A DNA stretch of 55,663 nt, taken from contig CASDYZ010000032.1 of NCBI GenBank assembly GCA_949285325.1, forward strand, positions 1 to 55,663, written 5' to 3'. The translations under genes and the position numbers were made by a program. The number at the start of each line of letters is the position of its first letter. Positions within the stretch are counted from its first letter, which is position 1. Below are positions 35,928-55,631 of this stretch, one piece after another. Source of the DNA: an uncultured bacterium. GTDB lineage: Bacteria; Bacillota_I; Bacilli_A; RFN20; CAG-826. A model generated the notes under the pieces. The model was not told where the DNA came from and did no database searches. It was given only the letters and a program-made list of their open reading frames with translations.

Positions 35928-36824
35928 CTATTCTCCTTTACTTTTGTCTAGACCTTTGTCAATTAATTCCAATGAATATTTTGAATTGATATGTTTGTCA
36001 AAGACGTGATAGGCGTAGAGGCTAAAAGAAATAGCCGAATGGGAAAAACCATAAAACACCAACAACGCCAAAAAAATAAATTGCATTATTAATAAAGGAA
36101 TAAAAAATGTTCCTATAATAAATAACATACTGACGATGACCATCAATAAATTTGATGGAAGTAAAATAATTGATAACAATAAATTATTTTTTGTAGTCGC
36201 AATAAATTTAAATTTATAAATAGAAGCACCGCAAAGAACAAAAAGAGAAAAACTTGCGACGATAACAAAAATAATACTTAGTAAAATAATTAAAATTACT
36301 TTGAGAAAAAATGGTATCTCATCCACTATCGGATAAAAATATATATTCATAAAGTATATGAATGTATAGATGCTAAAAACTACACCACTTAAAAGCGATG
36401 ATTTAATGTTAGATTTTACTCCATTAAAAAAGTCGCTCCACAAAAACAAATCACCTTCTTGAAACACCATCTTTTTAGCGACACTAAATGTTCCGCCTAA
36501 ACCGATAAAAGATAGGATAAATAAAGGTATAGAGAATAAATACTGTAGACATATGAGAGAAAAATTTTGAAATAGAATCATCTTCTCGTCTGGATTTGTA
36601 ATTAGAAATTGTTCTTTTGCGTAATTCATATATACGCCCCAAAGAAATGTAAAAATAACTAGAGGCAGGAAAAATAGACATGTAATTAAAGATAATAAAA
36701 TTAATTTAGAAAATCTATTTTTAAAAATATCAAAATACGCTTTGAAACGATTAGAAGGAAGCTTGCCGTCATTATTTTTAGAATTATCTTTATTGAAGAA
36801 ATTATAAAAACTATTTCTTTTCAT
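35928..36824 (-). CDS. YesL/DUF624-like membrane protein
   Basis: Multi-TM with WSDFFNGVKSN and Y.FK...T.KN.LLL segments typical of YesL; sugar ABC context. Confidence 0.6.
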   Translation of the reverse strand: MKRNSFYNFFNKDNSKNNDGKLPSNRFKAYFDIFKNRFSKLILLSLITCLFFLPLVIFTFLWGVYMNYAKEQFLITNPDEKMILFQNFSLICLQYLFSIPLFILSFIGLGGTFSVAKKMVFQEGDLFLWSDFFNGVKSNIKSSLLSGVVFSIYTFIYFMNIYFYPIVDEIPFFLKVILIILLSIIFVIVASFSLFVLCGASIYKFKFIATTKNNLLLSIILLPSNLLMVIVSMLFIIGTFFIPLLIMQFIFLALLVFYGFSHSAISFSLYAYHVFDKHINSKYSLELIDKGLDKSKGE

Positions 36825-37744
36825 TTTTTATTAACTCCTATAACTTCTTCTAAAGGAGGGACGACACCAATCGCACCTTTTTTTGTTGTGGCTTTTGCCC
36901 CAACAATATTAGCAAATCTAAGCAAATCCCTAATATTTTCTTCATTTTTTAATGCATTTTTATTATTATCAACCTCATATAAAATAAAAGAATAAAATGC
37001 ATCTCCCGCCCCGGTTGTGTCGAGTGCGTCAACTTTTATACTATCGACTTTTATAAGTTTGTCATCGTGATATAAAGCTGAACCTAATTTACCCAAGGAG
37101 ACAAATACATATTGATTTTTATTAAATAAATATTTAAGACCTTCTTCATATTTTTTAACGTTTGATAACAATAAAACTTCTTCTTCACTAACCTTGATTA
37201 AATCGCACTTCTTTATGACATCGATATAATATTGTTTAGATTGATTGGTATCAAAGAAGATATCGCTTCGATAATTGACATCAAAGGATATTTTTATATG
37301 AGGAAATCCTTTAAAATAATCAATCGCGTTTTTGATAAAATCTCGACCTTTTTCACTAGATAAACATAAAGAACCAAAATGAACTATATCAACCTCATTT
37401 AAATTAACATTTTCAATTAGTTCATTTAAATCAAATTGATAATCTGCCCCATCTTCTCTTATAAATTTAAAAGATCTCTCCCCCTTGTCTAAATTGACTA
37501 AAGCAATAGTCGTCTTTAAATTGTTCATTTTTTTAATAAACGTCTTCTTAAAATTTTGTCTAGAAGCAAAATCAATTAATTGTTCACCATATTTATCATT
37601 ACCAACTACACCATTAAAAATAACATCGCCTCCAAAAAAAGCGATATTTGACGCGACATTAAAAGGCGCGCCACCTGGGCGAACTTCTTCTATACTGCCA
37701 TCTTTAAATACATCGACTAATATTTCTCCAATAATCAATATCAT
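36821..37744 (-). CDS. PfkB family carbohydrate kinase (fructokinase)
   Basis: GEILVD, PGGAPFNVA, FDVNYR and DTTGAGDAF motifs; GH32 context. Confidence 0.9.
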   Translation of the reverse strand: MILIIGEILVDVFKDGSIEEVRPGGAPFNVASNIAFFGGDVIFNGVVGNDKYGEQLIDFASRQNFKKTFIKKMNNLKTTIALVNLDKGERSFKFIREDGADYQFDLNELIENVNLNEVDIVHFGSLCLSSEKGRDFIKNAIDYFKGFPHIKISFDVNYRSDIFFDTNQSKQYYIDVIKKCDLIKVSEEEVLLLSNVKKYEEGLKYLFNKNQYVFVSLGKLGSALYHDDKLIKVDSIKVDALDTTGAGDAFYSFILYEVDNNKNALKNEENIRDLLRFANIVGAKATTKKGAIGVVPPLEEVIGVNKK

Positions 37745-37746
37745 TA

Positions 37747-38703
37747 TTAAGCTGTTTCTCCTTTGACAAATGTAGTAGGAACGATGATTTTGGATTCCAC
37801 TTCTTCTTTGTCAATTCTTTTAATGAGAGTAGTTACAACTTGTCTAGCCATATTATTTAAATCTTGCTTAATGGTGGTAAATGTTGGATTTTGAATCCAA
37901 TCTCCCATACAACCATCGTAAGTTATTATTTTTAAATCGCTATTATAATTTAGTTCTCGCGCTACCCTATAAATGGCAAAGCCGAATGAATCGCTCGTCG
38001 TGAATACTGCGTCCAACTTTTTATATTTGTTTAAAAAACGTTTTGAGTGAACATATTCCTCACCGTGCCTAAAATCATCATAAAATATGTATTTTTCTAA
38101 ACCTAATTCATCACAGACATCATTATAGGCGTTATATCTTTCTAAAACTTCAGATGAGACGCTTGGCTTACCACCAATAAAACCGATATTCCTGCAGTTT
38201 AAAGAATATAAATATTTAATCGCTTTAAATGTCGCATCGTAATTATCAGAAGTTATACAAGGCACATTTTTACCAAAAAGTCTATCGATAGTCACAATCG
38301 GTAAAGAAGAATCAAAATTGTTATATTTGTTATGCGTGATAAAAATAATCCCATCAACTTGATTATTTTTTAACATCTTGATGAATTCTTCTTCTCTTTT
38401 TCTATTGTTGTCTGAATCTGTAATCAATAATTTATATCCAAATTCATGCGCGACATTTTCAATACATTCACTAATCTTTGCAAAGAAAGGATGGGAAATC
38501 ATCGGCACACATAAAGCGAGTATAAATGAACGATTAAGTTTAAGTGCTCTACCAAAAGAATTTTGTTCGTAATTTTCTTGTTCAATTACTTTTTTAATCC
38601 TTTCAGCGGCATCTTTAGATACATAACCATTGTTTAAATATCTCGATACTGTCGATTTACTCACTTTTGCTAAATTTGCAATGTCGATGATTGTCTTTCC
38701 CAT
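37747..38703 (-). CDS. LacI family repressor (ScrR-like)
   Basis: TIIDIANLAKVSKSTVSRYLNNGYVS HTH plus sugar-binding domain. Confidence 0.93.
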   Translation of the reverse strand: MGKTIIDIANLAKVSKSTVSRYLNNGYVSKDAAERIKKVIEQENYEQNSFGRALKLNRSFILALCVPMISHPFFAKISECIENVAHEFGYKLLITDSDNNRKREEEFIKMLKNNQVDGIIFITHNKYNNFDSSLPIVTIDRLFGKNVPCITSDNYDATFKAIKYLYSLNCRNIGFIGGKPSVSSEVLERYNAYNDVCDELGLEKYIFYDDFRHGEEYVHSKRFLNKYKKLDAVFTTSDSFGFAIYRVARELNYNSDLKIITYDGCMGDWIQNPTFTTIKQDLNNMARQVVTTLIKRIDKEEVESKIIVPTTFVKGETA

Positions 38704-38724: not shown

Positions 38725-40722
38725 TTAACCTCTATTAGTTTTTTTCTTCTTACTAATATAGATTAACGCAAATGCGATGATACTTAAAGAAAGAACACCA
38801 ACAATTATGATAGTTGAATCTTTAATTGATGAACTTAATTCAAGAGTCGCACGCAATCCATTTGTTGAAAGTTGAGAATTAATATAACTCATCGTGTCAC
38901 TTACTTCACATAAATCAATCTCGGTAGTATAAACTTCGCCACAATAAGAATAATCCATGGAATTAGAAACAATTTCTTGTGCTTGTTCACTTAAATTTGA
39001 GTAAGTAGTTTCAAGCAATTGTTTAACTTCATTATATAATTCAGTATTGTTATCATTTATCATCGAACAATATGTGAAACCATTCTCAGTACTTCTTAAA
39101 GTAGAATAATATTGACTCATGAAATCATATGCTTCTTTCATCACATCGTTTGATGTATTTTCATCATCTAAAGTACTATCTTCTACATATATATCTTTAA
39201 CGACACCATAAAGATTAACATTTTCTCCACTAATAGTGCCATTTTGATTGATAACACCAAGTTTAAATGATGGAAGAGTGTCATAATATGTAACTAATTC
39301 GTCAAAGAATACACACCCCCAATTTCCACCAGTACGGTAGTCAGCTAACGCGATGATAATTTTTTGTCCTAAATAATCACTTAAATCGATTATGTGTCGA
39401 GTCATGGTGTTTAATCGTCCGTTGCCTCTCACTGAATCAACATTATCAAAGAATGCTTTATTAGTTACTTCATAAAGTAGTTCATGATTATCAGCGTTTA
39501 AAACTTGAACTGCAGATGAATTGCCCGCCATCTTGATAGAAATTAATCCGTTTCCGCTCAAAGTGAAAGCTGGAGACAATAAACGATATTTTTCAGTTTC
39601 AACAAAGCCGTTATCCCAACCTCGATAGAATTTATCGTCAGTTTTGTTGTACGGCATGTGTTCAGCCCACGGAGCGTGTTCTTCGCTACTAATCGCGTTT
39701 GCGAATGGAATGTAATAAGGTTGATTTAAAGTGGTTGTAGGGACAGTCTCGCCTTCTTGAACTTCTCCACTATATACAACATCTCTTGCGCTAAAATTGA
39801 GATCATACGCCCAGTCTAATAAATGTCCATCTTCAAAGCCTTCATTTAAATTGGTGATATTTGTTGAATAAGTGCCGTCTTCATTAATTGTTAATCCATT
39901 TGCTCTAACTACACTATATTCATCAGCAGTTCTATAAACATCGATAATATAATCTCTTGCTCTAGTATTATAATTAGCATTCGCGTCAAGCCCTTCACTT
40001 GGAATAGCGTGTTCACCATCATAAGGATTATATGGATAATGTGTAGTGTTATTTAAATCAATTACATTTCTTAAATCTTCGATATGGGCGGCTACACTCT
40101 TAACGACATCATCGATATTTTGATTGACTTGAAGCGCGCCAAAAGTCACCATACCAAAACCACCAGTTCTTTCATCAATTATTTGTAAATATAGTTGTTG
40201 TCCTTGATATTTACTTGGAATTTCAACAACTTTTGTAATCATATTGACAGAAAGATATGGATCATTAAATTGATCGTTAGTGATAGTTTTTACAACTTCA
40301 TCACCTTCAACTGTTTTAATTTCAACTCTATTTTGTGTAGTTTCGCCATTCACTTGAGGTCTTCCGCCTAAGGTGAAGGTGATGTAATCTTCAGTTTGTA
40401 CGAACGACTTGCTTGTAATTGTACCAGTCCAAGTTTCATGTCTATTACCATCGTAGAAATTATCCATCGCATTAAAATAACGATAATTCCAGAATGTACC
40501 ATATCTATCAGTCGTATACGCCGATGGTTTTAATTCCTCTTGCCCTTCACTAAGCTGTGTGCTATGAAAAGTGAAATTTGCATCGTTAAAAGGAATATAT
40601 TTTTCCACTTCTTCTTGAGCAGATACATTTGTTGTAAGAGGGGCATCAACAGTCATAAGTCCGCCGAAGGCAAATGCGGATATAGCCATTAAGCCAGTGC
40701 CTAAAAGTAAATACTTCTTCAT
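38725..40722 (-). CDS. non-catalytic surface protein: signal peptide, two CBM38-like modules, helical domain, C-terminal TM anchor
   Basis: Signal peptide ending VSA; two copies of the module shared with neighbouring genes; ends in a hydrophobic helix + KKKK. Confidence 0.7.
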   Translation of the reverse strand: MKKYLLLGTGLMAISAFAFGGLMTVDAPLTTNVSAQEEVEKYIPFNDANFTFHSTQLSEGQEELKPSAYTTDRYGTFWNYRYFNAMDNFYDGNRHETWTGTITSKSFVQTEDYITFTLGGRPQVNGETTQNRVEIKTVEGDEVVKTITNDQFNDPYLSVNMITKVVEIPSKYQGQQLYLQIIDERTGGFGMVTFGALQVNQNIDDVVKSVAAHIEDLRNVIDLNNTTHYPYNPYDGEHAIPSEGLDANANYNTRARDYIIDVYRTADEYSVVRANGLTINEDGTYSTNITNLNEGFEDGHLLDWAYDLNFSARDVVYSGEVQEGETVPTTTLNQPYYIPFANAISSEEHAPWAEHMPYNKTDDKFYRGWDNGFVETEKYRLLSPAFTLSGNGLISIKMAGNSSAVQVLNADNHELLYEVTNKAFFDNVDSVRGNGRLNTMTRHIIDLSDYLGQKIIIALADYRTGGNWGCVFFDELVTYYDTLPSFKLGVINQNGTISGENVNLYGVVKDIYVEDSTLDDENTSNDVMKEAYDFMSQYYSTLRSTENGFTYCSMINDNNTELYNEVKQLLETTYSNLSEQAQEIVSNSMDYSYCGEVYTTEIDLCEVSDTMSYINSQLSTNGLRATLELSSSIKDSTIIIVGVLSLSIIAFALIYISKKKKTNRG

Positions 40723-40739: not shown

Positions 40740-42947
40740 TTAATTACTTCTAGCTTCGAGCCATGGGAGTCTAACTTCCTCGCCGTTTTGAATGACGACG
40801 TCATAGTGCTCGTCTATGTTGATTGTTTGTTCGTGATAGACGTTAATATCATCAAAGAAAGCGACTGCCCAACTTTCTGAAATAACTTCATCACAAATTT
40901 CTATATAAAGGTTTTCACCTAAATATTGACTTAAATCAGCTACATATGTATTCATCGTGGCTAATCGACACCCTTGAGAAATATAAGGGAAATTAACATC
41001 TTGGAAGGCGTAGTTACGATACTCTGCAACAACCTCATTTGTTTCATTTTTAACAGTTAATTTTGAGGAACGTCCACCTAATTTAAATGTGATTTGCCCG
41101 CTTCCATTAAGTGTGAATGTCGTTGACTTTAATGTGTATCCTTCTACTTCAACACTACACGCATTCCACCCGTTAAAGAAATATGTGCCACTTTTATTAA
41201 ATGGGATGGCTTCAGCCCACCAAGTATCATCGCTACAAATCGCATTATCAGTGTTAACATTGCCGTCTAATACGAGCCAACCATCTAAATTACCAGTTTC
41301 AAAACCACCATTTTCAATTTGATTATCGTAAGTCAAATTATCCAAGACATTTAATTTAATAATGCTATCTGTAAAATTGTCGAATGCATCACTAATCTTA
41401 ATATTGACAACGTACTCTCCAACATTTAATTCAAAATTAGAATAGTCACCTTCTACTTCATTTCCGTTATATGTAACAGATGTAATTTCTGTTTTTAAAT
41501 CGTTAGTCGCAGTGTAATCATCACTGTAAGACAATTGTTTAAACAAAACATTTAAATTCATCGTTTGAGGAGAGATTGTTAGTTCTTGTGCTACTCCATT
41601 TGTCTCATCAATGACAGGTGCTTGTCCACCTAGTGGGAAAGAAATACCGCCGTTATATGCGTTTATATAAGCATTTTTTGCTACGTCGTCAGCGACTTCA
41701 TTCGCCCAATTTCTAAGTGACGCTACTCCGTCAATCACTTCTTGTTCACTCAAATTAATGACGAAATCATCAACTTCAATAAATGCAAATCCACCAGTCG
41801 ATACATTATCTACGATTGTGAAATATAAAGTCTTACCAATATATTCACTTAAATCTACATAATAACGGATGAGATTTTGGGCTAAATCTGGATCTTTAAA
41901 AGCGGTGTTATAAACTTTTAATAATTCTTCACCGGTCTCCCCGTCATTAACCGCGACATATGTGCCAGGTTGAGAAGCCGCGCCGATCATAAATGTCGCA
42001 TAAGATTTACCATTTCCTTTATCGATTACTTTAAATCTTTCACTTCTCATTTTACCCGTTTTATCTTCACCACTTGAAAGGTTAGATAAGAAGTATTCTC
42101 CCTCTGCGTGATATTGTCTAGTTTCCCAATATAAACTTGAAGAAGGTACAATCATACTGTCATTTAAGAACGCTTCTCCCGCGATTGGTAACCAATACGA
42201 TGTATCGCCTGTTTCAAATCCCCCATTTCTAAGCGACTCTACTGGAGTAGAAGCGTCGATATCAGCTTGTTGATACATGAGAAGTTGATCTTCTCTTTCA
42301 ACTAGTGCATCGTTTCTTTCTTGTGCGTTCATCAACAATTTAAAATCGTCAAGATTAAAGAAAGAATAATCTTCATAATCAGATTCAGTCGCATTATCAG
42401 TTATCTTAATGTAAATATCTTTTTCAAGATGTTCTCTTAAATCGACGACATGACGAATCATGATAGACCTAATAGTCGTGCCATTAAAATCAGTATTAAC
42501 TAATTTTGTATATTCAGTTTCTCTATCGCCATCTAAATAAAATGTTAAAGGAACATCGTCTTTACCGACTTCATAAAATTCAATATAGCAATCTTCAGTA
42601 TTAGACGCAGCCCCTAATTTTAAGGAGATATTAGCTATCCCACCTAAATGAAATGGGTCACTTGTTAAAGTACCAGTAAATGCTGGTAAAGACATGCTTG
42701 CCCCGGCGTACATATATTCGCCTACTTTTTCACTTTGTTGCCCATCTTCAAAACTAGAAGCATTAGAGACATCTTCTTCACTAAAGCCACCTAAACCTCC
42801 AACAGTCCAACCAACTAAACCATCTTCAAAGCTACCATTTTTGATTTGTGTGTCATATTTAGGCGTCTCTTCACCACTCTCTTCACAACCAGTGACGAGA
42901 AAAGGAATTAATAACAATAAAGGTACAATAATCTTATTTTTCATCAT
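40740..42947 (-). CDS. non-catalytic lipoprotein with three CBM38-like modules and an Ig-like spacer
   Basis: Start moved to ATG 42947 (AAGGAG RBS, lipobox VTGC); three NGxFExG..W / S..F / DL..(Y/H) / DD repeats. Confidence 0.75.
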   Translation of the reverse strand: MMKNKIIVPLLLLIPFLVTGCEESGEETPKYDTQIKNGSFEDGLVGWTVGGLGGFSEEDVSNASSFEDGQQSEKVGEYMYAGASMSLPAFTGTLTSDPFHLGGIANISLKLGAASNTEDCYIEFYEVGKDDVPLTFYLDGDRETEYTKLVNTDFNGTTIRSIMIRHVVDLREHLEKDIYIKITDNATESDYEDYSFFNLDDFKLLMNAQERNDALVEREDQLLMYQQADIDASTPVESLRNGGFETGDTSYWLPIAGEAFLNDSMIVPSSSLYWETRQYHAEGEYFLSNLSSGEDKTGKMRSERFKVIDKGNGKSYATFMIGAASQPGTYVAVNDGETGEELLKVYNTAFKDPDLAQNLIRYYVDLSEYIGKTLYFTIVDNVSTGGFAFIEVDDFVINLSEQEVIDGVASLRNWANEVADDVAKNAYINAYNGGISFPLGGQAPVIDETNGVAQELTISPQTMNLNVLFKQLSYSDDYTATNDLKTEITSVTYNGNEVEGDYSNFELNVGEYVVNIKISDAFDNFTDSIIKLNVLDNLTYDNQIENGGFETGNLDGWLVLDGNVNTDNAICSDDTWWAEAIPFNKSGTYFFNGWNACSVEVEGYTLKSTTFTLNGSGQITFKLGGRSSKLTVKNETNEVVAEYRNYAFQDVNFPYISQGCRLATMNTYVADLSQYLGENLYIEICDEVISESWAVAFFDDINVYHEQTINIDEHYDVVIQNGEEVRLPWLEARSN

Positions 42948-44373
42948 TTTCTTCTCCTTTAGTTTCTTTATATTCATATTTAATAAAATTAGTAATATTA
43001 ATATTGCTATCATTTTCGTTATCAAAACAAACACCATATTCTCCACATGCAAAATATAGTGCGGAGAACGCATATTTATTGTTGATTAATATTTCGATAC
43101 ATGAATGGTCAATCAATATGTCGAAATGAAGTTTATCGACACCTTCATCAATCAATATTTTTCTAACATTCGCATCACTTCCATCTTGATTAAAAATATA
43201 TTCAAAAGAATCTTCTCTAGAAAAAAGTATAGTTTCATCACTTTTATCGATATAAATATAAAAACCTTTACCATTAGAATTATATAGGCTGATAATCCCA
43301 TTTTTATCGATTTGAATATTAAATTTATAACGCACTATTGGGCTATTTGACTTAAATTCGCATTGATTTTCAACTTTAAAGTCGTCTATTTGATTTATAT
43401 TTTTTACATATTTTTTTAATCCGTCATCATTAAAATATTGATAGATATAATTGTTTTCTACTTTTAAGATTCTAGGCACGATAAACTGACCTGCATAACC
43501 TAAAAATTCGCTAGGGAAATTTCTATCCCACATCGCTTGCCACGCGACGAGGTAGTTAATATTGTCGTGTCTTAAAGTTTGAGAAGCATAAAAATCAAAA
43601 CCATAATCGAGTTGTATCTCGTCGCTTGTAGGAACAAATTTAATGTTGTCAAAATCAAATTTACCAATTAAAGCGATTGTTGAATGTATGTTTTGATATT
43701 TATATTTAGAAGTAGATTTTTTATACTGTGGGGAACAGAATAAAATACATTCGTCATTTTGTTCATTTAAAAATAAAATGTCGCAGCATTCAAGCATGCC
43801 GTTACTTAAATTATTCATTTCAAAAATTGGTCCTAGATAGGTGACATCCTTAAAATCTTTAGTTCTAAATAAGATTAGATGTGAACCATCTTCTTTGACT
43901 TTCGCGCCGACAAGTACATAAAAATAACCATGACGGAAAAATATCTTAGGGTCTCTAAAATTATTAATATCATATATAGAAGGCAAATTATGCCTATCTA
44001 TAAATGGATTTAAATCGCTTTTTATATAATTGAGTCCATCAGTAGAAGAGGCGATACACTGCGTCTGCACTTTATCTTTAACACCTGTATAAACTAAATA
44101 ATGTTTTTTATCAATTTCAGTCGCGGAGCCAGAAAAACATCCATCGCCATTATCGTAAGGTTTATCAGGACATAAAGCGATACCCACTTCATCCCATTTA
44201 ATTAGATCTTCACTGACAAAATGTAGCCAGTGCATCGGCCCCCATTTAGTGTCAAATGGATTGTGTTGGGCGAAAAGATGATATTTTCCATCGAAGAAAG
44301 AAAAACCATTAGGGTCATTAATCCATCCTTTGTGGGCGGTGATATGAAAAATAGGTCGATAATCTTTATTCAT
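42934..44373 (-). CDS. GH32 beta-fructofuranosidase, cytoplasmic
   Basis: WINDPNG, FSGSA, FRDP and EC motifs; no signal peptide. Confidence 0.92.
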   Translation of the reverse strand: MNKDYRPIFHITAHKGWINDPNGFSFFDGKYHLFAQHNPFDTKWGPMHWLHFVSEDLIKWDEVGIALCPDKPYDNGDGCFSGSATEIDKKHYLVYTGVKDKVQTQCIASSTDGLNYIKSDLNPFIDRHNLPSIYDINNFRDPKIFFRHGYFYVLVGAKVKEDGSHLILFRTKDFKDVTYLGPIFEMNNLSNGMLECCDILFLNEQNDECILFCSPQYKKSTSKYKYQNIHSTIALIGKFDFDNIKFVPTSDEIQLDYGFDFYASQTLRHDNINYLVAWQAMWDRNFPSEFLGYAGQFIVPRILKVENNYIYQYFNDDGLKKYVKNINQIDDFKVENQCEFKSNSPIVRYKFNIQIDKNGIISLYNSNGKGFYIYIDKSDETILFSREDSFEYIFNQDGSDANVRKILIDEGVDKLHFDILIDHSCIEILINNKYAFSALYFACGEYGVCFDNENDSNINITNFIKYEYKETKGEENDEK

Positions 44374-44374
44374 A

Positions 44375-46429
44375 TTAATTCACCTCAATATCGTGGAAGA
44401 CACCACTGGTAAGATGTGCGCTTCCCCCTTCAGTAAAGAAAGAAATATCTTTTCCTGCTTCACTAGGAAAAATAAGCCCGCTCATCGTGTAATATCCATC
44501 ATTAATAAATAATTCAACACTTGAAACATCGACAAATATCTCAAATTTAATTTTGTTGTCGATTGGTTCAATTCGTGCATATCTGACATTTAGTTCTCCA
44601 TCGTCATCAAAGGAGTCAATATCGACACCACTGTTACGCCTATCAAATACGACCATACCTAAAAAATCATCATAGTAAATATTAGTAGATTCATTTTCGC
44701 TTTGAAGGAGTTTAAAACCAGCTTTCCCACCATTTAAATTAGATACATCAATTTCAACATTTAAATGAATTTTATCGCCTTTAACGTCTAATTTAATTTC
44801 ATTATCACTACATTCGATTTCATTCAAAATAGTCTCGTTTTGATAGTAATTTTGTATTTCTTGTATTGGTTTTTGATAAATATGATTATCTTTTAATTCT
44901 AGTTCTCTAGGCAAGGTAACTTCACCTGCATAGCCATCTATCGCACTAGGATAACTTCTCGACCACATATTCATCCACGCGAGCATTATGGTCCTATCTT
45001 CTTCTTGATAAATCTGAGTGGCATAAAAATCAAAACCTTTATCAAATTCCTCCATGTAGTCGACACCATTATCATTTGTAAATATACCGTTTTCAAAATC
45101 GAGATTACCGATCTGATAAGTGACAGAATGGATATTTTGATATGACGCTTTATCCGCGTCTCTTATAGATTGTGGAGAAGTTATAATAATGTCTTTACCA
45201 TCCATATAGGCATAATTTGGACATTCAAACATCCCGCTTCCTGTAATGGTGGAAGAATAAATACTACCTATCGTTTTCCAATTTAATAAATCGGAGGAAG
45301 AATATAAAAGAAGTTGACCTCCTTCACCTTCTAGTTTCCCACCAATCAACGCGTAATAAACATCGTCTTTAACAAATAAATATGGATCTCTAAAATCAGT
45401 GATTCGCGAATTTAGTCTCATAGATGAATCAATAACTGGGTTCATATTTCTCTTAGTGAAAGATACGCCATCAAAACTAGTGGCGAGAGCTTGTTGTTGC
45501 ACCCCTGTTTCACCTACCGCGGTGTATAGTAGATGCATCTTATCTCCATCTACCACCGCACCTCCAGAAAATACACCATTTTTATCGTAACTTTTATCAG
45601 GTGCAAGTGCGATAGAGGCATCTGTCCACTTAATTAAATCTTTACTTATCGCGTGTCCCCAATACATCGTATCCCAGCTAGGAGAATATGGATTATGTTG
45701 ATAAAACAAATGATAGTAACCATCGTAATAAACAAAACCATTAGGGTCGTTCATCCATCCTATAGTAGGCATGAGATGATATGTGTGTCTATATCTATCA
45801 TTGACTGTGTCTTTGTATTTAAGCGTGTAATTTCTCGCGTCGCTCAATAAAGTTCCATCATCTTCATTCAAAGAAGAAGATATTTCAAAATCATCGACCA
45901 TTATGTAGTTATAACCACTATTAGAAGAATCATTGTCATTAAGTTGAACATATAATTGTTCACCTATATATTCTTTTAAATCGACGACGATACGGTACAT
46001 CCTATTATTCGGTACTTCGTGATTAAAAAATTTATTACTAATTCTTGTTATTTCTTCACCAGTGTCATCTTTATGGATTGACACATAGACTAAATCAGGG
46101 TTTGCCCCTCCTCCAATCAAGAAACTAATTTTACCATTTCCTTTAAGTTTAAATGATGTTGATTTAAGTGTACCAACCGCCTCATTACCGACACTTTCTC
46201 CACTTAAATAAAAATTACCTTCGACGTGAATTTTATCTTTATTTGAATCACTTATCAAAACACAAGTATCGTTAAAAGCGTCCCCACTTATCGTCCAATT
46301 AGAAAGCGTCCCTAACTCAAAATCTCCATTGGTAAAAGTGTAAGGTTTATCACTTGAGGAAGTAGAGCAAGATGAAGAGGAGATAGTTAAAAATAAAATT
46401 AACAAAGGGGCAAATTTATTTTTTTTCAT
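44375..46429 (-). CDS. GH32 exo-type fructan hydrolase lipoprotein with N-terminal CBM38-like module
   Basis: Signal peptide ending SSSC; NGDFELGTLSNW module; WMNDPNG, FSGGA, FRDP and MFECP motifs. Confidence 0.9.
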   Translation of the reverse strand: MKKNKFAPLLILFLTISSSSCSTSSSDKPYTFTNGDFELGTLSNWTISGDAFNDTCVLISDSNKDKIHVEGNFYLSGESVGNEAVGTLKSTSFKLKGNGKISFLIGGGANPDLVYVSIHKDDTGEEITRISNKFFNHEVPNNRMYRIVVDLKEYIGEQLYVQLNDNDSSNSGYNYIMVDDFEISSSLNEDDGTLLSDARNYTLKYKDTVNDRYRHTYHLMPTIGWMNDPNGFVYYDGYYHLFYQHNPYSPSWDTMYWGHAISKDLIKWTDASIALAPDKSYDKNGVFSGGAVVDGDKMHLLYTAVGETGVQQQALATSFDGVSFTKRNMNPVIDSSMRLNSRITDFRDPYLFVKDDVYYALIGGKLEGEGGQLLLYSSSDLLNWKTIGSIYSSTITGSGMFECPNYAYMDGKDIIITSPQSIRDADKASYQNIHSVTYQIGNLDFENGIFTNDNGVDYMEEFDKGFDFYATQIYQEEDRTIMLAWMNMWSRSYPSAIDGYAGEVTLPRELELKDNHIYQKPIQEIQNYYQNETILNEIECSDNEIKLDVKGDKIHLNVEIDVSNLNGGKAGFKLLQSENESTNIYYDDFLGMVVFDRRNSGVDIDSFDDDGELNVRYARIEPIDNKIKFEIFVDVSSVELFINDGYYTMSGLIFPSEAGKDISFFTEGGSAHLTSGVFHDIEVN

Positions 46430-48783
46430 TAATATATCCCCTCCAAATTGTTCATCACAAAACTCGATATAATACTAGAAGTTTCTATTTTTGTATATAA
46501 AGCATCAAAAGAAGAAGGATAACTCCTCAAAGATATAGTTTTTTCATTGTTAAAGACAACTTCGACACAACTTCTATCGACATATAAATCAATTTCAATC
46601 GATGAAGCATCGCTTATTTGTCCACTAAAATCTCCGCCACTCAAAGAAGAATTATTGCCATTTAAAGTGTTGACTGCCCCAACGATGTTATTAGCAGGAT
46701 CAACATAAATAGATGTATATTCACTCTCATCGCTAGTCATCCTCGTCTTAATCGTTAATGGAGAAGAGAGATTTTCAACACTTAATTTAATATTAAACAT
46801 ATCGCTACTTATGTCTTTAATATTCATGTTGATTTCATCTGCGCTTAGATTGACACCATCAAAAACTACTCCACTAGATAAATTAGAGACAACGTCATCG
46901 ATGATAGATATATTTAAATCGTTGGTGTTGGTATTATAGTTAATAACACGTGGTAAACCAACATTATGTGACCAGCCAGAACTTGCTAAATCAATAGATT
47001 CTCTCGACGATTGTAAAATTGAGAAAATAATAGTCTCACCACTCACTGGATCAATAAAACCACTTGGGCCAGTAAAGATATTTTTACCATAATCCATTCG
47101 GCGAGGATCTTTAAAATCTGGAATAAATCTAAATGTATCTTTATTAAATTTACCAATCCAATAGATGATATTATTGTCTGCGGTTGACGCGGGCGCAGGT
47201 GAAATAATAAATATCCATTTATTTGTTTCGTTGTTATTCTCATCTTTTAAAGGAAGTAGGACAGGTAACTCCCATACAGTACCGTATTTAGAGTCACTAT
47301 TATCATAATCAAAGACATGACCTTTATATTCCCAGTTATGAAAATAATCTGTTTTATTCGCATTAGTGTAATAAATGAGGGCGGTGCCTCGAGAAGAGTT
47401 TTCATCCCCACTTCCAATGATTAAATAATAATCATCACCATCTTTATAAATGTGTGGATCTCTAAATTCTCCACTTCTTCCTTGTCCACTTTCTTGAGCA
47501 ATTGCAAGCTCATCATCAATTATCCATTCAGTTAAATATGGATCAGATAAATCTTTAGGTTTAGCCATACCGACATTTTGATTTGAAACTAGACCAGAAT
47601 GAACATAATCACCAGCGGTAAAAAATAAAGTAGGTACACCATCTTTATCGTAAGTAGACGCGCCAGACCACACCCCGTCAGGACATACACTATCAGCGGT
47701 AGGGACGACAACTTCTTTTCTAGGTGTCCAATTAACCATATCTTCACTAGTTAGGTGTCCCCAACAAATACCACGCGCGTCATTGAAATATGGACCATTA
47801 GGATTGAATTGGAAAAATAAATGATAGACACCGTTATAATATATAGGGGCGTGTGGCTCATTCATCCAATGCTCGTATGGACCTCCGTGATATTGTGGTT
47901 TATATACATCAGTCGTAAGTGTATTTTGAATCCAAACATCATTAAAATTAACTTCTTTAATTTCGCCATCAACTAAACAAGTTTCATAATATTCTCTATA
48001 ATCTTTAAAAGTTAAAACTGAATCATAAAACCTAAGTTCATCTAATAGTCCAGAAATAACTCCTTCTGAACAATCTCCCGATGAGGTGGCGACAGTGTTT
48101 TTACCAATTAAAAGTGGTAAGTCGCATCCAACAATTTTAGAAGAGGCAGGTATTTCCATCCTGTTGGCGATTACACCATTGACATATAAAAGCATCTCAC
48201 CATTTACTCCGTCGAAGACTGCAAGGACACTGTTCCATTCATATTGATTTAAAGGTGTACCTTCATCATAAAGTTGATACCATCCACTTTCTGTTCCTAC
48301 TCCAAAAGTGACTTTACCATCTCTTTTGTATCCAAGTTGAAAACCAGAAGCATAACTATCATCTTTATAATATTGACTAGCAATCGCTTGTATTAAATCA
48401 TCTTTAGAATTTTGATCACTCCAATTGTACGCGCGAGGCGCAATCCAAGCGGATATAGAGAAACTATCACCTTCTACTTTATATTCACCACTATCGATGG
48501 AGGCAAAAGTAGAATAGCCATCAAACACCATCGCGTCATCAAATATCCCTTCTTTAAATTGAATGTTTATTGGTGATGGTAGGGTTTGTGATTCTAATAA
48601 GTGATAGCTCATCTTGATAGAATCTATATGTTTAGATGAATCTATTAATAGCGATTCATTATTTTCTTCAAATTTAAAATACGCTTTTAAGTTTTGTTCA
48701 TACGCCATTCCAGTAGAATTAGAACAAGAGACACTTGCCAAAGATAAAAATAATAAAAAACTAATACTCAATATTTTTTTCAT
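46429..48783 (-). CDS. LamG-GH32 lipoprotein, cycloinulo-oligosaccharide fructanotransferase / endo-fructanase-like
   Basis: Signal peptide ending SVSC; LamG motifs (FSISAWI, LYVNG, GLLDELRFY); WMNEPHAP, WSGAS, FRDP and VWELP motifs. Confidence 0.82.
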   Translation of the reverse strand: MKKILSISFLLFLSLASVSCSNSTGMAYEQNLKAYFKFEENNESLLIDSSKHIDSIKMSYHLLESQTLPSPINIQFKEGIFDDAMVFDGYSTFASIDSGEYKVEGDSFSISAWIAPRAYNWSDQNSKDDLIQAIASQYYKDDSYASGFQLGYKRDGKVTFGVGTESGWYQLYDEGTPLNQYEWNSVLAVFDGVNGEMLLYVNGVIANRMEIPASSKIVGCDLPLLIGKNTVATSSGDCSEGVISGLLDELRFYDSVLTFKDYREYYETCLVDGEIKEVNFNDVWIQNTLTTDVYKPQYHGGPYEHWMNEPHAPIYYNGVYHLFFQFNPNGPYFNDARGICWGHLTSEDMVNWTPRKEVVVPTADSVCPDGVWSGASTYDKDGVPTLFFTAGDYVHSGLVSNQNVGMAKPKDLSDPYLTEWIIDDELAIAQESGQGRSGEFRDPHIYKDGDDYYLIIGSGDENSSRGTALIYYTNANKTDYFHNWEYKGHVFDYDNSDSKYGTVWELPVLLPLKDENNNETNKWIFIISPAPASTADNNIIYWIGKFNKDTFRFIPDFKDPRRMDYGKNIFTGPSGFIDPVSGETIIFSILQSSRESIDLASSGWSHNVGLPRVINYNTNTNDLNISIIDDVVSNLSSGVVFDGVNLSADEINMNIKDISSDMFNIKLSVENLSSPLTIKTRMTSDESEYTSIYVDPANNIVGAVNTLNGNNSSLSGGDFSGQISDASSIEIDLYVDRSCVEVVFNNEKTISLRSYPSSFDALYTKIETSSIISSFVMNNLEGIY

Positions 48784-48786
48784 AAA

Positions 48787-49698
48787 TTATTTTAGTCCGG
48801 TAAAACTAACTCCTTCCACGATGTATTTTTGGGCAAAAATATAGACGAGTGCGATAGGTATAGTTGAAAAAGTCAAAGACGCCATTACGACTCCAATATC
48901 TTTAGGAGAAGCAGTATTGACTAACTGTAAGAATACTTGTAGAGGTTGAAAGGCTGGGTTAGGGAACATAAATTGTGCAAAGATATATTCATTCCACTGC
49001 CCCATGAAAGTAAATATTGCTACGGTTGCAAAAATTGGTTTTGAAAGTGGGACTATCATCCTAAAAAACACTCCGACTCTCGAACATCCATCAATTCTCG
49101 CAGCTTCTTCAATCTCGATAGGCATTCCTAAAAAATATTGTCTAAACATATAAGTGTAAAATAAGGAAGCAAAACCTGGTAAAAGATAACCAATGACACT
49201 GACTGGTTCAGTGAGTAAACCTAAATAATACAAAATTAAATATGTCGGGACGATACTAGTTTCAACCGGGATAATCATCAACAATAAAATGATGGTTGTC
49301 ATCGCCTTATTGCCTGGGAATTTAAATCTAGCAAGTGCATATCCCGCTAAAGAATTTATAATTAATACCATAACAATTGTCACCGTGCAGTAGACAATTG
49401 AATTTAAAATAGAACGTCCAAAATATTCAAAAGTATCAAATAACTTAATATAGGATACAAACCATTCACTTATGTTCCATGAAGGTGGTAAAAATGTAAA
49501 GATGCTATTCATTTGAGCATACACTTGCTCGTCTGTCTTAAATGAATTTGATACCATCCAAACAATAGGGAAGAGGAAAATGAACACTAAAAAAGCACAT
49601 AGAAAAGCAATAGATATTTTTATCAACAATTTAGATATTGATATTTTCTTTTTTGGTTTATGTAAAGAATATATGCGGTTAGTATTGATGCTTTTCAT
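48787..49698 (-). CDS. carbohydrate ABC permease (MalG-like)
   Basis: EAA loop IEEAARIDGC; AGYALAR and FMGQWNEY motifs. Confidence 0.93.
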   Translation of the reverse strand: MKSINTNRIYSLHKPKKKISISKLLIKISIAFLCAFLVFIFLFPIVWMVSNSFKTDEQVYAQMNSIFTFLPPSWNISEWFVSYIKLFDTFEYFGRSILNSIVYCTVTIVMVLIINSLAGYALARFKFPGNKAMTTIILLLMIIPVETSIVPTYLILYYLGLLTEPVSVIGYLLPGFASLFYTYMFRQYFLGMPIEIEEAARIDGCSRVGVFFRMIVPLSKPIFATVAIFTFMGQWNEYIFAQFMFPNPAFQPLQVFLQLVNTASPKDIGVVMASLTFSTIPIALVYIFAQKYIVEGVSFTGLK

Positions 49699-49700
49699 AA

Positions 49701-50636
49701 TTATGCTTGGTTATCTCCTCCTAATACTTTTCTTAAAGTGAGTGATATTGTCGCGATAATAAAGGTATAGAGTAAGGCGATCGCACTCGAATAACCAACG
49801 TCGCGGTATTCGACACCAGTTTTATAAATGTAAAAGGACATAGTCATAGTCGAACCAAGTGGTCCACCATCAGTCATAATCATCGGTTGAATGCAAATTC
49901 TAAAAGCACCGATAAGCATAGTTATAAAAACAAATACGAGAGTTGGCTTAATTGAAGGGAGGGTGACGTGGATAAATTGTTGCCACTTATTTGCCCTGTC
50001 GATAGAAGCGGCCTCATACATATCTTTAGATATATTTTTCAGCCCACTTAAAATGATGAGCATCTGATATCCTGCACCTTGCCAAGCAGATATAAATATG
50101 ATGCACGGCATAGCTTGATTAGGATCTTCTAAAAAGAGCGCGGGATTTGCCCCTAGTGCGAGTAAAAATGTATTTATAAGTCCTTCTTGAGAATTTAACA
50201 AATTCATCCAAAGCATTGAGGTGACCGCTAAAGAGAGCATAACCGGGACAAAAAATGCCCAACGCAAGAAAGTGTTGAAACGCTTGACGTGATTTAAAAG
50301 AAGTGCGAGTCCTAATGCAGTGCCAAATTGAAGAGGCATGACACCTAAGACAAATATCAAAGTGTTTTTAAGTGCGTTTCTAATTTCTACGTCTTCAAAA
50401 GCTCTTAAAAAATTATCAAAACCGATAAAATTAACTCTATCGAGTCTTAGCATATTCGCGTCAGTAAATGCATAAGTTAATGATATAAATATTGGTAAGA
50501 AAACAAAAATTGCCGCCAGAACGAAACACGGTAGGAGAAAAAGTATACCAGTTACTGCTTCTTTAGTATTGTATTCACTCTTACCAAATGTGAAGTGTGT
50601 TTTCTTTTTTCTAGCGACAATATTGTTAATTTTCAT
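49701..50636 (-). CDS. carbohydrate ABC permease (MalF-like)
   Basis: FIGFDNF, EAA loop MYEAASIDRA and MTDGGP motifs. Confidence 0.93.
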   Translation of the reverse strand: MKINNIVARKKKTHFTFGKSEYNTKEAVTGILFLLPCFVLAAIFVFLPIFISLTYAFTDANMLRLDRVNFIGFDNFLRAFEDVEIRNALKNTLIFVLGVMPLQFGTALGLALLLNHVKRFNTFLRWAFFVPVMLSLAVTSMLWMNLLNSQEGLINTFLLALGANPALFLEDPNQAMPCIIFISAWQGAGYQMLIILSGLKNISKDMYEAASIDRANKWQQFIHVTLPSIKPTLVFVFITMLIGAFRICIQPMIMTDGGPLGSTMTMSFYIYKTGVEYRDVGYSSAIALLYTFIIATISLTLRKVLGGDNQA

Positions 50637-50639
50637 ATT

Positions 50640-51983
50640 TTATGCTCTGGCGGCATCCACTCTTTCCATTTGTTCTCTAATTTGATTTTCTAAATCGTAA
50701 TTAGACACTAAATTCATGTTTTTGATGTAATTTAAAACTTCTCCATACGCATCTTTTAAAACTGGATATTTAACCATTTGAGGACGTGTATATTGATTAG
50801 ATACGAGATATGAAGCGAGGTCTTGTTCTGGACCACTTTTAAATTCTTCCATAGTATCTAAAAGATTTTTATTAGTTGGGAATGTACCAATCGCGTCATA
50901 CATCATCTTTGATGCAGTCTCGCCAGTTAAATATGTAAGTACGATTGTTGACGCTTCAATATTTTTGCTATCGTTAGTGATACCAAATCCATACGAACCA
51001 CAAGGTGAAGCGACAATATCGCTTTTATTTCCGCTTTCATCTTCATAGACAGGATATGGCATAATTCCATAATTATCTTTAAATGCTGAATCAGATTTTT
51101 TAATTTCTCTCGCATCCCATGGACCATGGATTTGGAAAGGAATTAATTCTTGGGCAAAAGCATTTTCGTTCGTGCCGTTATATACCCAAGATTCACTACC
51201 TGTTAATCCTTCGTTTGAATAAAACATTTCAAGTTGGGCGATGCCTGATATTGCTTCTTGAGTAGTAAGGGCTTCTGTGACGTGATCATCTGTACCAAAA
51301 TTTGCCCCTGCAGAATATACTAGTCCAGAATAAAGATACATATTACCATCAGTACCAAAATTTTGATTTAATGCGATTTGATATTCTAAGCCGGCGTCTT
51401 TCAATACTTGTTGAGCAGTATGAACATCTTTCCAAGACCAAGGATTTTCTAAAGTACCAAAGTCTTCTTCAGTATAGCCAACTTGCTTTAATAAATTTTT
51501 GTTGTAATAAAGTCCGCCTGGAGCTTCCATTCCAGAAAGGAAATACATTTTACCATCGATCGTACCTTGTTTGATAACGCTGTCGACATAGGTGTTTTTA
51601 ACTTCATCACTTAAATATTCATCAAAAGACACAATAATATCGTTGTAAACTTTTGCGGCGACATCACTAGAGTCAACCGCGACGATATCTGGAAGTGAAT
51701 TAGTCATAATTGAGGCATTAATTTTATCTTCTAAAGTCGTACCCCAAAACGACATGGATATGCGAAGTTGAGTGCCATCGCTTGTCGTATAACCGGCGTT
51801 GTTGAAGTTGGTTTGAAGTTGCTTATATATTTTACCTTCATCTTCTGTTTCATTTTTATGAACCCAAACAGTGACGATTTTAACTCCATCTTCTTCACTT
51901 GGTTCTCCACCTCCACATGATGTAAAAACAAATGCACTTGTCAAAACAAGAGACATTAAAATTGGTAGTTTAAATTTTCTCAT
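50640..51983 (-). CDS. carbohydrate ABC solute-binding lipoprotein
   Basis: Lipobox FTSC; LPDI, LYYNKNLL and HGPW motifs of family 1 solute-binding proteins. Confidence 0.9.
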   Translation of the reverse strand: MRKFKLPILMSLVLTSAFVFTSCGGGEPSEEDGVKIVTVWVHKNETEDEGKIYKQLQTNFNNAGYTTSDGTQLRISMSFWGTTLEDKINASIMTNSLPDIVAVDSSDVAAKVYNDIIVSFDEYLSDEVKNTYVDSVIKQGTIDGKMYFLSGMEAPGGLYYNKNLLKQVGYTEEDFGTLENPWSWKDVHTAQQVLKDAGLEYQIALNQNFGTDGNMYLYSGLVYSAGANFGTDDHVTEALTTQEAISGIAQLEMFYSNEGLTGSESWVYNGTNENAFAQELIPFQIHGPWDAREIKKSDSAFKDNYGIMPYPVYEDESGNKSDIVASPCGSYGFGITNDSKNIEASTIVLTYLTGETASKMMYDAIGTFPTNKNLLDTMEEFKSGPEQDLASYLVSNQYTRPQMVKYPVLKDAYGEVLNYIKNMNLVSNYDLENQIREQMERVDAARA

Positions 51984-52783: not shown

Positions 52784-52869
52784 TGGTGCCCGAGGCCGGA
52801 CTTGAACCGGCATGGTTATTCACCGATGGATTTTGAGTCCATTGCGTCTACCAATTTCACCACTCGGGC
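52784..52869 (-). tRNA. tRNA-Leu (anticodon CAA)
   Basis: GCCCGAG/CTCGGGC acceptor stem + ACCA, anticodon arm ATGGA-CTCAAAA-TCCAT, long variable arm, GGTTCAAGTCC T arm. Confidence 0.96.
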
Positions 52870-54047: not shown

Positions 54048-54505
54048 ACTATAAAAATTAGAATATTCATTGAATGATTCAAAAAAATATATGCCAACAA
54101 CTTTGCTACACCTTCATTTTTGAAAATATATATTTGATAAGTAGAATATTCTAATAATCCAGGAAAGCAATAATCCATCGCGATAGAACAAAACACAAAC
54201 TTAAATACTTCTAAATCATTTGGTCCGTCTCCAAAATAGATTACTTATTCAAGTTTGAAACCTAGATAATCAACCAGAGCCTGTATAGCACTAATCCTTG
54301 AGCATCCTTTATTCTGCAAGCTTACTGTTTTAGTTGTTTCCCAATAGTAAACATCAAAATTCATTTTTAATCTTTCTAGTTCTACTTTTTCTATGTCAAA
54401 TAAAACTAGGTTATAAAATTTTGAAGTAGCACCTTTGCTTTGAGCAATAAACCCATTTTTCAGCGCTTTTTCTTTTGCTTTATCACTGTTAATAATTTTG
54501 TAAAA
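54005..54505 (-). pseudogene. Cof-type HAD hydrolase C-terminal remnant
   Basis: KGCSRISAIQALVDYLGFKLE*VIYFGDGPNDLEVF...SIAM...NEGVAK with HAD motif GDGxND; in-frame TAA at 54245-54247; N-terminal DxD motif missing. Confidence 0.75.
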
Positions 54506-54586
54506 AAAATAACCTATAATGCTTACAAATTATAGATGTTCGTCAGAAATGGCACTCAACCTACATATTAATACTTTCGACACCTC

Positions 54587-54663: not shown

Positions 54664-55593
54664 TTATATACGAGCATTTAATAAAAACAGGTATTCATTT
54701 TCTGATTCTTCAACAAGATTTTTAATAATTTCAATAAAATCAGAATAGTCATAAGTTGTATGTGCTTTATCTAAAGCATCATAGTATTCAACTCTATCTT
54801 CGTTTTTAATTATAACAGGCGGATATCCATTTTTTATTAACTCAAAATTAAGTAAGAGTCTTGCAGTTCTTCCGTTTCCATCTACAAAAGGGTGTATTTT
54901 TACAAACTCACCATGAAGATAACATGCTCTTACGATAGGGTGTAAATTACTCCACTTTTTATAATTTTCTATTAATTTTTGCATTTCAAAAGGTACATTA
55001 ATATAGTTAGGAGGTATGTGTTTCGCACCACTAATAAAAACATTTTCTTGACGATATTTACCAGCGTTAACAGAATCAATTTCTTTTAATATTAAGTGAT
55101 GAATAGATTTAATGTTATATTCAGTTAAAACACAATCTTTTCGAACAAGTTCTTCAATAAAGTCGATTGCTTCCTTGTGATTTATGGTTTCCAAGTGATC
55201 CTTTAATGGCTTGCCTTTAATTGCAATTCCATTTTCTAAAACCACTTTTGTCTCAGAAAGAGTTAAATTATTACCTTCAATTGCATTTGAATTATAAGTC
55301 CACTCAACAACTAATTTATTTTTGAGTTGCTTGTTCATCAAATTTGAAAATGGTCTAAATGTATCTATCAATTCTTTCTTTTTATCAACTGGTTTAAAAT
55401 CGATTGAATTATAAAATATATTTTCTTTAACTTTATATCTTTTATCAATAGGCTTTGTTGCCTCTACTGGTATCAACCAAGTTTTGCTAACTTTTATTGC
55501 ACCTTCAATTCTACCTTCCGAACACAAAGCTCTGATTCTTCTTTCATTGATTCCCCACTTTTCTACAAAATATAAGATATTTTTTAATTCCAA
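54664..55593 (-). CDS. Fic-domain protein (class II) with N-terminal HTH
   Basis: HPFVDGNGRTAR Fic motif, SNAIEG inhibitory motif, N-terminal WGINERRIRALCSEGRIEGA...WLIP; TTG start behind AGGAGGTG. Confidence 0.9.
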   Translation of the reverse strand: MELKNILYFVEKWGINERRIRALCSEGRIEGAIKVSKTWLIPVEATKPIDKRYKVKENIFYNSIDFKPVDKKKELIDTFRPFSNLMNKQLKNKLVVEWTYNSNAIEGNNLTLSETKVVLENGIAIKGKPLKDHLETINHKEAIDFIEELVRKDCVLTEYNIKSIHHLILKEIDSVNAGKYRQENVFISGAKHIPPNYINVPFEMQKLIENYKKWSNLHPIVRACYLHGEFVKIHPFVDGNGRTARLLLNFELIKNGYPPVIIKNEDRVEYYDALDKAHTTYDYSDFIEIIKNLVEESENEYLFLLNARI

Positions 55594-55631
55594 ATAAATC
55601 ACCTCCTTTATTCTGATATCGGCACAATATT

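Follow-up and report, generated by a model that had tools for sequence, protein, structure and literature searches.

A LamG-linked GH32 lipoprotein with a glutamate nucleophile, probably a surface endo-inulinase, in the fructan operon of a small-genome gut bacterium

No prebiotic is in wider use than inulin, and who profits from it is decided by the gut organisms whose enzymes cut it first outside the cell. Whether such an enzyme leaves linear chains or closed rings for its owner is the question raised by one locus of an uncultured bacterium (GTDB lineage Bacteria; Bacillota_I; Bacilli_A; RFN20; CAG-826; assembly GCA_949285325.1). The stretch analysed, hereafter the window, comprises positions 1 to 55,663 of contig CASDYZ010000032.1 and carries, at 46429..48783 on the minus strand, a gene for a member of glycoside hydrolase family 32 (GH32). 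A sequence-only reading had proposed a possible cyclofructan-forming enzyme and named a plain endo-inulinase as the alternative; the alternative has turned out to be the better reading. Judging by its sequence and its genomic surroundings, the protein is probably a surface endo-inulinase that feeds linear inulo-oligosaccharides to the ATP-binding cassette (ABC) importer encoded in the same operon. In terms of enzyme class, a membrane-anchored, outward-facing endo-beta-fructanase of the EC 3.2.1.7 type is most likely. This view builds on the observed domain architecture, the alignment of catalytic residues, family-wide conservation and operon context. It places the protein within an already known enzyme type and implies no new mechanism.

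The open reading frame is intact under translation table 11 and encodes a lipoprotein of 784 residues. Its N-terminus, MKKILSISFLLFLSLASVSC followed by S, is a signal peptide (48724..48783; all features of the window given here lie on the minus strand) that runs up to a lipobox-like Cys20. Of 120 near homologs, 108 show a lipobox-like pattern. In a 36-sequence alignment covering proteins from gut metagenome-assembled genomes (MAGs), Bacillaceae and Streptomyces, most gut homologs align a Cys behind the hydrophobic stretch. Three domains follow. The first is a LamG, or concanavalin-A-like, jelly roll at residues ~30–270 (47974..48696), recognised by Pfam (PF13385; Laminin_G_3 at residues 102–258, E 1.3e-16), by the structural model and by Foldseek. 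The second is the five-bladed GH32 propeller at residues 299–623 (46915..47889; Glyco_hydro_32N, PF00251, E 7e-53; also found by phmmer), and the third the GH32 C-terminal beta-sandwich at residues 647–764 (46492..46845; Glyco_hydro_32C, PF08244, E 5e-10). The LamG domain and lipoprotein signal that had been read ahead of the GH32 domain are thus borne out by Pfam and Cys20.

The catalytic residues can be placed with similar clarity. The motifs WMNEPH, FRDP and WELP start at residues 306, 440 and 504, respectively. In phmmer alignments with solved GH32 structures, E309 (codon 47857..47859) occupies the place of the Asp nucleophile in W(M/I)NDPN and E505 (codon 47269..47271) that of the acid/base Glu in WECP, while D442 of the RDP motif (codon 47458..47460) is the predicted transition-state stabiliser. 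E309, D442 and E505 match the GH32 catalytic triad and are invariant in all 36 aligned sequences. With propeller, beta-sandwich and triad all present, the protein is a GH32 enzyme, and the two unusual motifs, WMNEPH and WELP, had been assigned to the correct catalytic positions, as both the phmmer alignment and family conservation show. A Glu at the nucleophile position had been linked to endo-inulinases, and this link is documented in the literature as far as the sources describe it: INU2 of Aspergillus ficuum uses Glu43 in YWMNEPNG, with Glu233 in EVPDM (PMC5245892), and EnIA of Arthrobacter sp. S37 uses Glu323, with Asp460 and the acid/base Glu519 (PMC5984348; PMC7545266 for the nucleophile).

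The motifs are kept throughout a large family. We use GH32-E as a working name for proteins with a LamG domain directly upstream of a GH32 domain that carries W-x-N-E-P and W-E-L-P, a definition under which the protein studied here falls by its sequence. Among its 120 best near-length homologs, WMNEPH is found in every one and WELP in 118, the other two having WEMP in one case and a sequence that escaped the search pattern in the other. Matches among proteins longer than 1372 aa (n = 69) all combine a WMNEP-type motif with WELP, as WMNEPH[A/G] in 68 and WMNEPNA in one. Since they are kept across near and long homologs alike, the motifs are not a chance feature of one sequence but a family signature. 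In the 36-sequence alignment W306–H311, Q325, W341-G-H, D369-G, W372, R441–D442 and W504–P507 are invariant, whereas gut-clade sequences differ at the Pro of RDP. The predicted substrate-binding residues N308, Q325, W341, W372 and R441 are thereby unchanged over a wide phylogenetic range, and in six of six long multidomain proteins Pfam finds LamG immediately before the Glu-type GH32 domain.

With one genome scanned per species, at least 583 relatives were found, and most of those among the matches listed are ~800 aa long. They occur in gut MAGs of Bacilli, Lachnospiraceae, Oscillospiraceae and Christensenellaceae, and further in Paenibacillus, Streptomyces, Bacteroidota, Duganella, Vibrio and haloarchaea, haloarchaeal plasmids included. 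A plasmid collection gave seven matching records, all with generic annotations. In a maximum-likelihood tree of 54 catalytic domains, a branch with 100/100 support splits the Glu-type domains from canonical GH32 domains, and the protein of the window lies within an 11-row clade of gut sequences (support 100/99). One GH32-E homolog, of Streptomyces glaucescens (locus L035, 10001-10684), has an in-frame stop in its LamG region; this gene may be broken, or the stop may be a read error.

The long homologs also bear on the mode of action. In 29 of the 69, the GH32-E domain is fused in one chain with a GH32 domain of the canonical WMNDPNG type, as would be expected if exo- and endo-hydrolases cooperate. 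A competing view is that the protein is an exo-acting or other surface fructosidase, releasing fructose or inulobiose, or a near-inactive fructan binder, in which the exchange to Glu is simply tolerated, and here the closest solved structures, by sequence as well as by fold, are indeed exo-enzymes and invertases. Set against this, the invariant triad and substrate-binding residues argue, at the level of sequence, for an active enzyme, the fusions argue for an activity complementary to that of the canonical domain rather than redundant with it, and the operon already has two canonical exo-type GH32s. An exo-acting or binding role thus appears quite improbable.

Structural modelling is in agreement with the family assignment. 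The full-length AlphaFold2 model has a predicted local distance difference test (pLDDT) score of 90.9 and a predicted template-modelling score of 0.88, and its top Foldseek neighbours are all GH32 enzymes, at 16–23% identity. The LamG–GH32 arrangement itself was absent from the solved structures searched with phmmer and Foldseek. Modelled alone, the LamG domain (pLDDT 90.4) matches generic lectin-type jelly rolls such as the binding domains of clostridial neurotoxins, and its matches include the sugar-binding domain 4 of the GH43 arabinanase AbnA; we read these model-based likenesses as a shared fold only. No CBM66 occurs within the first 50 Foldseek matches.

The gene is part of an operon of ~18 kb, in which the three GH32 genes of the genome, the only ones it has, lie side by side. 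The order on the minus strand starts with a solute-binding lipoprotein of an ABC importer (50640..51983; Pfam SBP_bac_1/8; N-terminus ...VFTSC followed by GGG) and two ABC permeases (49701-50636 and 48787-49698; BPD_transp_1), followed by the GH32-E gene. Next come a second surface GH32, a 684-aa lipoprotein with canonical WMNDPNG/ECP motifs and an N-terminal repeat module (44375..46429), and a cytoplasmic canonical GH32 of 479 aa with WINDPNG and no signal peptide (42934..44373; sequence and Pfam). Packing around the GH32-E gene is tight, with a 3-nt gap on one side and a 1-nt overlap between its stop and the start of the second GH32 on the other. The remaining genes encode a 735-aa lipoprotein (40740..42947), a 665-aa secreted protein with a C-terminal membrane anchor (38725..40722), a LacI-family regulator (37747..38703; Pfam), a PfkB-family sugar kinase, probably a fructokinase (36821..37744; Pfam), a polytopic membrane protein (35928-36824; sequence and Pfam) and a MalK/MsmK-type ABC ATPase of 624 aa (34050-35924; Pfam), in which ~250 residues after the TOBE domain match no Pfam family. 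With surface glycanase, ABC importer and solute-binding protein, intracellular glycosidase, regulator and kinase together, the locus has by its gene content the make-up of a Gram-positive polysaccharide utilisation locus (gpPUL).

Three neighbouring surface proteins share a repeat module of ~150 aa, which begins with N-G-x-F-E-x-G-x-L-x-x-W and ends in a hydrophobic-x-D-D stretch. Six copies, identified by homology to the repeats of a Paenibacillus protein taken up below (L084), lie at 45872-46330, 40740-42947 and 38725-40722. The N-terminal domain of the second surface GH32 matches an L084 repeat at E 1e-18, the 735-aa lipoprotein has three copies (BLAST E 5e-15 to 9e-8) and is a probable fructan-binding surface protein on this sequence evidence, and the 665-aa protein has two weaker ones (E 7e-6 to 9e-5). 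The L084 repeats match these neighbours and not the N-terminus of the GH32-E protein. The module is without a Pfam model; going by the match in architecture alone, it may be the inulin-binding CBM38, in which case the locus would show six probable fructan-binding modules in trans.

The arrangement recurs elsewhere. Of 59 loci searched, 20 were tabulated. One of these, from a Bacilli MAG (L004), keeps the complete gene order of the operon, and its GH32-E homolog is 59% identical to the protein of the window. The series of solute-binding protein, two permeases, GH32-E, canonical GH32 and module proteins is also found in five Clostridia-type MAG loci (L014, L021, L022, L048 and L054), four of which include the LacI regulator and kinase, while the L022 locus ends before them. 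Two GH32-E paralogs per operon occur in L021, L022 and L048, adjacent in L021 and L048 and split by the canonical GH32 in L022; the window has one.

Upstream of the operon lies a tRNA-Leu(CAA) gene (52784-52869), and beyond it, at ~54100-54520, a stop-interrupted remnant resembling a Cof-type HAD phosphatase with a GDGPND motif, recognised by eye. A Fic/DOC-domain protein (54664-55602; Pfam E 2e-24) occupies the edge of the window.

The host genome measures 1.15 Mb, is 97.8% complete, has ~32% G+C and uses table 11. Searches of the genome found no penicillin-binding transpeptidase and a single Mur-ligase-type match, so that the organism is, on gene content, probably wall-less. Lipoprotein anchoring would in that case put the enzymes directly on the cell membrane.

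From these elements we infer that the enzyme acts endo on inulin and leaves linear products, with the steps in the following order. The surface proteins with repeated modules, together with the LamG domain of the GH32-E protein, would hold inulin-type fructan at the membrane, where the GH32 propeller would cut internal beta-2,1 bonds by retaining double displacement, in which E309 is the predicted nucleophile and E505 the predicted acid/base, while D442 would stabilise the transition state. The resulting linear oligosaccharides could be trimmed by the adjacent canonical surface GH32, caught by the solute-binding lipoprotein, or both, and would enter through the ABC permeases. Inside the cell, the canonical GH32 would hydrolyse them to fructose, to be phosphorylated by the PfkB kinase, and the LacI regulator would control the operon. 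The only cytoplasmic GH32 is of the canonical Asp type, and linear oligosaccharides whose fructosyl end is free would be suitable substrates for it.

The presence of two surface GH32s allows for a different substrate, as they might divide linkage types between them, and the GH32-E protein could then be an endo-levanase or a broad endo-fructanase acting on beta-2,6 levan or on mixed grass and bacterial fructans. In the same direction, the name ‘levanase’ appears among the database names of long homologs, and the CBM38 of a cycloinulo-oligosaccharide fructanotransferase (CFTase) is described as binding levan as well as inulin (PMC10076258), homologous modules being present at the locus. The ‘levanase’ names, however, are automatic annotations, and two endo-levanases differ from the protein: the characterised BT1760 uses Asp62 in GFVGDPMP, according to PMC5245892, and the solved LevB1 (9h8i) matches weakly, at E 6e-10. 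The Glu-nucleophile GH32s documented in PMC5245892 and PMC5984348, as far as these accounts extend, act on inulin. Levan or a mixed fructan as the main substrate is thus unlikely.

The original proposal went further. Cyclofructans resist exo-fructosidases, and the protein was suggested to be a CFTase, cutting inulin and joining the fructosyl-enzyme intermediate back to the end of its own chain, to give six- to eight-membered rings that the ABC system would import and competitors could not use. The best approach to this class among the sequences collected is L084, a protein of 1340 aa (L084, 3260-7282, minus strand) from the genus of Paenibacillus endophyticus, in which 31 of 74 genomes have GH32-E matches. 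Behind its signal peptide come two ~150-aa repeats, LamG and a GH32 domain that carries WQNEPGG, FRDP and VWELP, then Big_2 and a third, C-terminal repeat. It aligns with residues 28–781 of the GH32-E protein at 31% identity (E 2e-107), sharing its Glu nucleophile, FRDP and VWELP. The CFTase of Bacillus circulans has 1503 aa, and in that of B. macerans a C-terminal region is reportedly needed for cyclisation. The layout of L084 fits the published description of CFTases, GH32 enzymes acting on inulin (PMC10076258, PMC4835578), as given for the Paenibacillus macerans enzyme: 1333 aa, with an N-terminal CBM38 of two beta-sandwich domains at residues 32–389 (PMC10076258). We regard L084 as a candidate CFTase-type protein on this analogy, its assignment being drawn from architecture.

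The resemblance to CFTases is therefore real at the level of the superfamily. As a diagnosis it fails, because LamG, NEP and WELP are common to the whole family and so do not single out CFTases; motifs and LamG extend across phyla to the at least 583 mostly ~800-aa relatives counted above. In other respects the two differ. The GH32-E protein has LamG as its only N-terminal domain by Pfam, without CBM38-type modules, and its 784 residues, with the GH32 C-domain ending at 764 and no flanking repeats, match neither the size nor the C-terminal region of a CFTase. Its nucleophile loop reads WMNEPH, not WQNEPGG. Relatives of L084 with WQNEPGG or WGNEPGG, 1966–2147 aa long, come from Paenibacillus, Cohnella, Guptibacillus and Halalkalibacterium, and the 11 WQ/WG-NEPGG sequences form a clade of their own (100/100) that excludes the protein of the window, the CFTase status of this clade being judged from architecture. 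Rings would moreover require an opener inside the cell. No endo-type candidate for that step was seen among the three GH32s of the genome, the lone cytoplasmic one being of the canonical Asp type, which speaks against a cyclofructan route. The solute-binding protein is silent on linear versus cyclic ligands, its matches to solved sugar-binding proteins being weak (best E 3.6e-10). Short length, missing CBM38, separate clade and lack of a candidate ring opener among the three GH32s together leave the cyclofructan-forming enzyme unsupported, and we consider it highly improbable here. The wider version, in which the gut LamG–GH32-E lipoproteins are transfructosylases making a cyclic or end-blocked product that resists exo-fructosidases and is taken up by the cognate ABC system, is just as much a long shot; were it true, small-genome gut bacteria would keep for themselves a part of a polymer that is open to all.

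Several points weigh against a surface endo-inulinase, which we hold as probable. With a CFTase-like clade in the superfamily, transferase chemistry is within evolutionary reach. Specificity for inulin over levan is likewise something we infer, and no assay of a member of the gut clade was found in the literature searched. Foldseek on the full model gave no separation of endo- from exo-acting GH32s, and the endo-inulinase 3sc7 comes 18th in its list, after plant invertases and exo-enzymes. In three homolog searches, the names attached to homologs never say endo-inulinase or CFTase, a typical one being generic, such as ‘GH32 C-terminal domain-containing protein’. The comparison with EnIA draws on published residue numbers only, and the motifs of that enzyme are printed inconsistently in the reviews, PMC5984348 giving ‘319-WMNDEPNGL-327’ and ‘519-ECMP-522’. 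Finally, none of 401 sampled genomes from the family of Arthrobacter sp. HS15c matches the catalytic domain at E<=1e-60.

Among gut Firmicutes and the small-genome bacteria related to them, GH32-E appears to supply the principal enzyme of endo-inulinase type. Its annotation as a Glu-nucleophile endo-inulinase type would sharpen the metagenomic prediction of inulin degraders. The host itself, with its 1.15-Mb genome and probable lack of a wall, is a candidate primary degrader of dietary fructan.

The gpPUL fructan loci described in gut Firmicutes of the Roseburia/Eubacterium rectale group are like the present operon in combining GH32s with an ABC transporter, a LacI-type regulator and a sugar kinase. 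The 17 GH32s of gut Firmicutes treated in PMC7833758 have, in that account, either the canonical NDPNG or belong to an inactive Gly-Asp cluster, and two only are extracellular, with CBM66. A Glu nucleophile is described there for none of the 17, unlike the protein of the window. The inactive ‘cluster 4’ GH32s of butyrate producers, as portrayed in the same source, were dismissed as relatives, being intracellular and having Gly-Asp, not Asn-Glu.

The CFTase of P. macerans CFC1, for which PMC10076258 gives the accession AAG47946.1, shares, as judged through L084, LamG, a Glu-nucleophile GH32 domain and WELP with our protein and would belong to the same superfamily. It differs in its nucleophile loop, WQNEPGG in the candidate L084 against WMNEPHA here, and in clade, and its CBM38-type repeats stand in cis, whereas homologous modules are found in trans on three neighbours of the GH32-E protein.

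INU2 (PDB 3RWK/3SC7) and the GH32-E protein have in common a Glu nucleophile and a residue other than Cys after the acid/base Glu (EVP versus ELP), and INU2 is described as acting endo on inulin (PMC5245892). INU2 is without LamG and shares ~20% identity; phmmer places it 15th (E 2.7e-20) among 27 distinct sequences. It works alike and comes from another lineage.

The closest counterpart is EnIA (Kim et al. 2008, as cited in PMC5984348 and PMC7545266), for which a 2439-bp gene, a 75-kDa enzyme and products from inulotriose to inulopentaose (degree of polymerisation 3–5) are reported (PMC5984348, PMC7545266), with N322, Q339 and R459 in substrate binding (PMC7545266). The one Arthrobacter locus returned (L083), considered as a source of EnIA relatives, carries a canonical GWLNDPNG GH32 instead. 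EnIA is a secreted soil enzyme and the GH32-E protein a lipoprotein in a gut operon, and the EnIA motif appears, from the printed versions, to be WMNEPNG-like where ours is WMNEPH. Their residues otherwise run in parallel. N308/E309, Q325, R441/D442 and E505 reproduce the EnIA-like order of Asn at -1, Gln at +16, RD and Glu, and in both proteins 196 residues separate the nucleophile from the acid/base. GH32-E members of 784–815 aa have their nucleophile at positions 309–330, compared with residue 323 of ~812 codons in EnIA, and the numbers of EnIA also fit the ~300 residues that precede the catalytic domain in the protein of the window. The case is thus good but indirect that EnIA, an enzyme with DP3–5 products, belongs to the same LamG–GH32 family.

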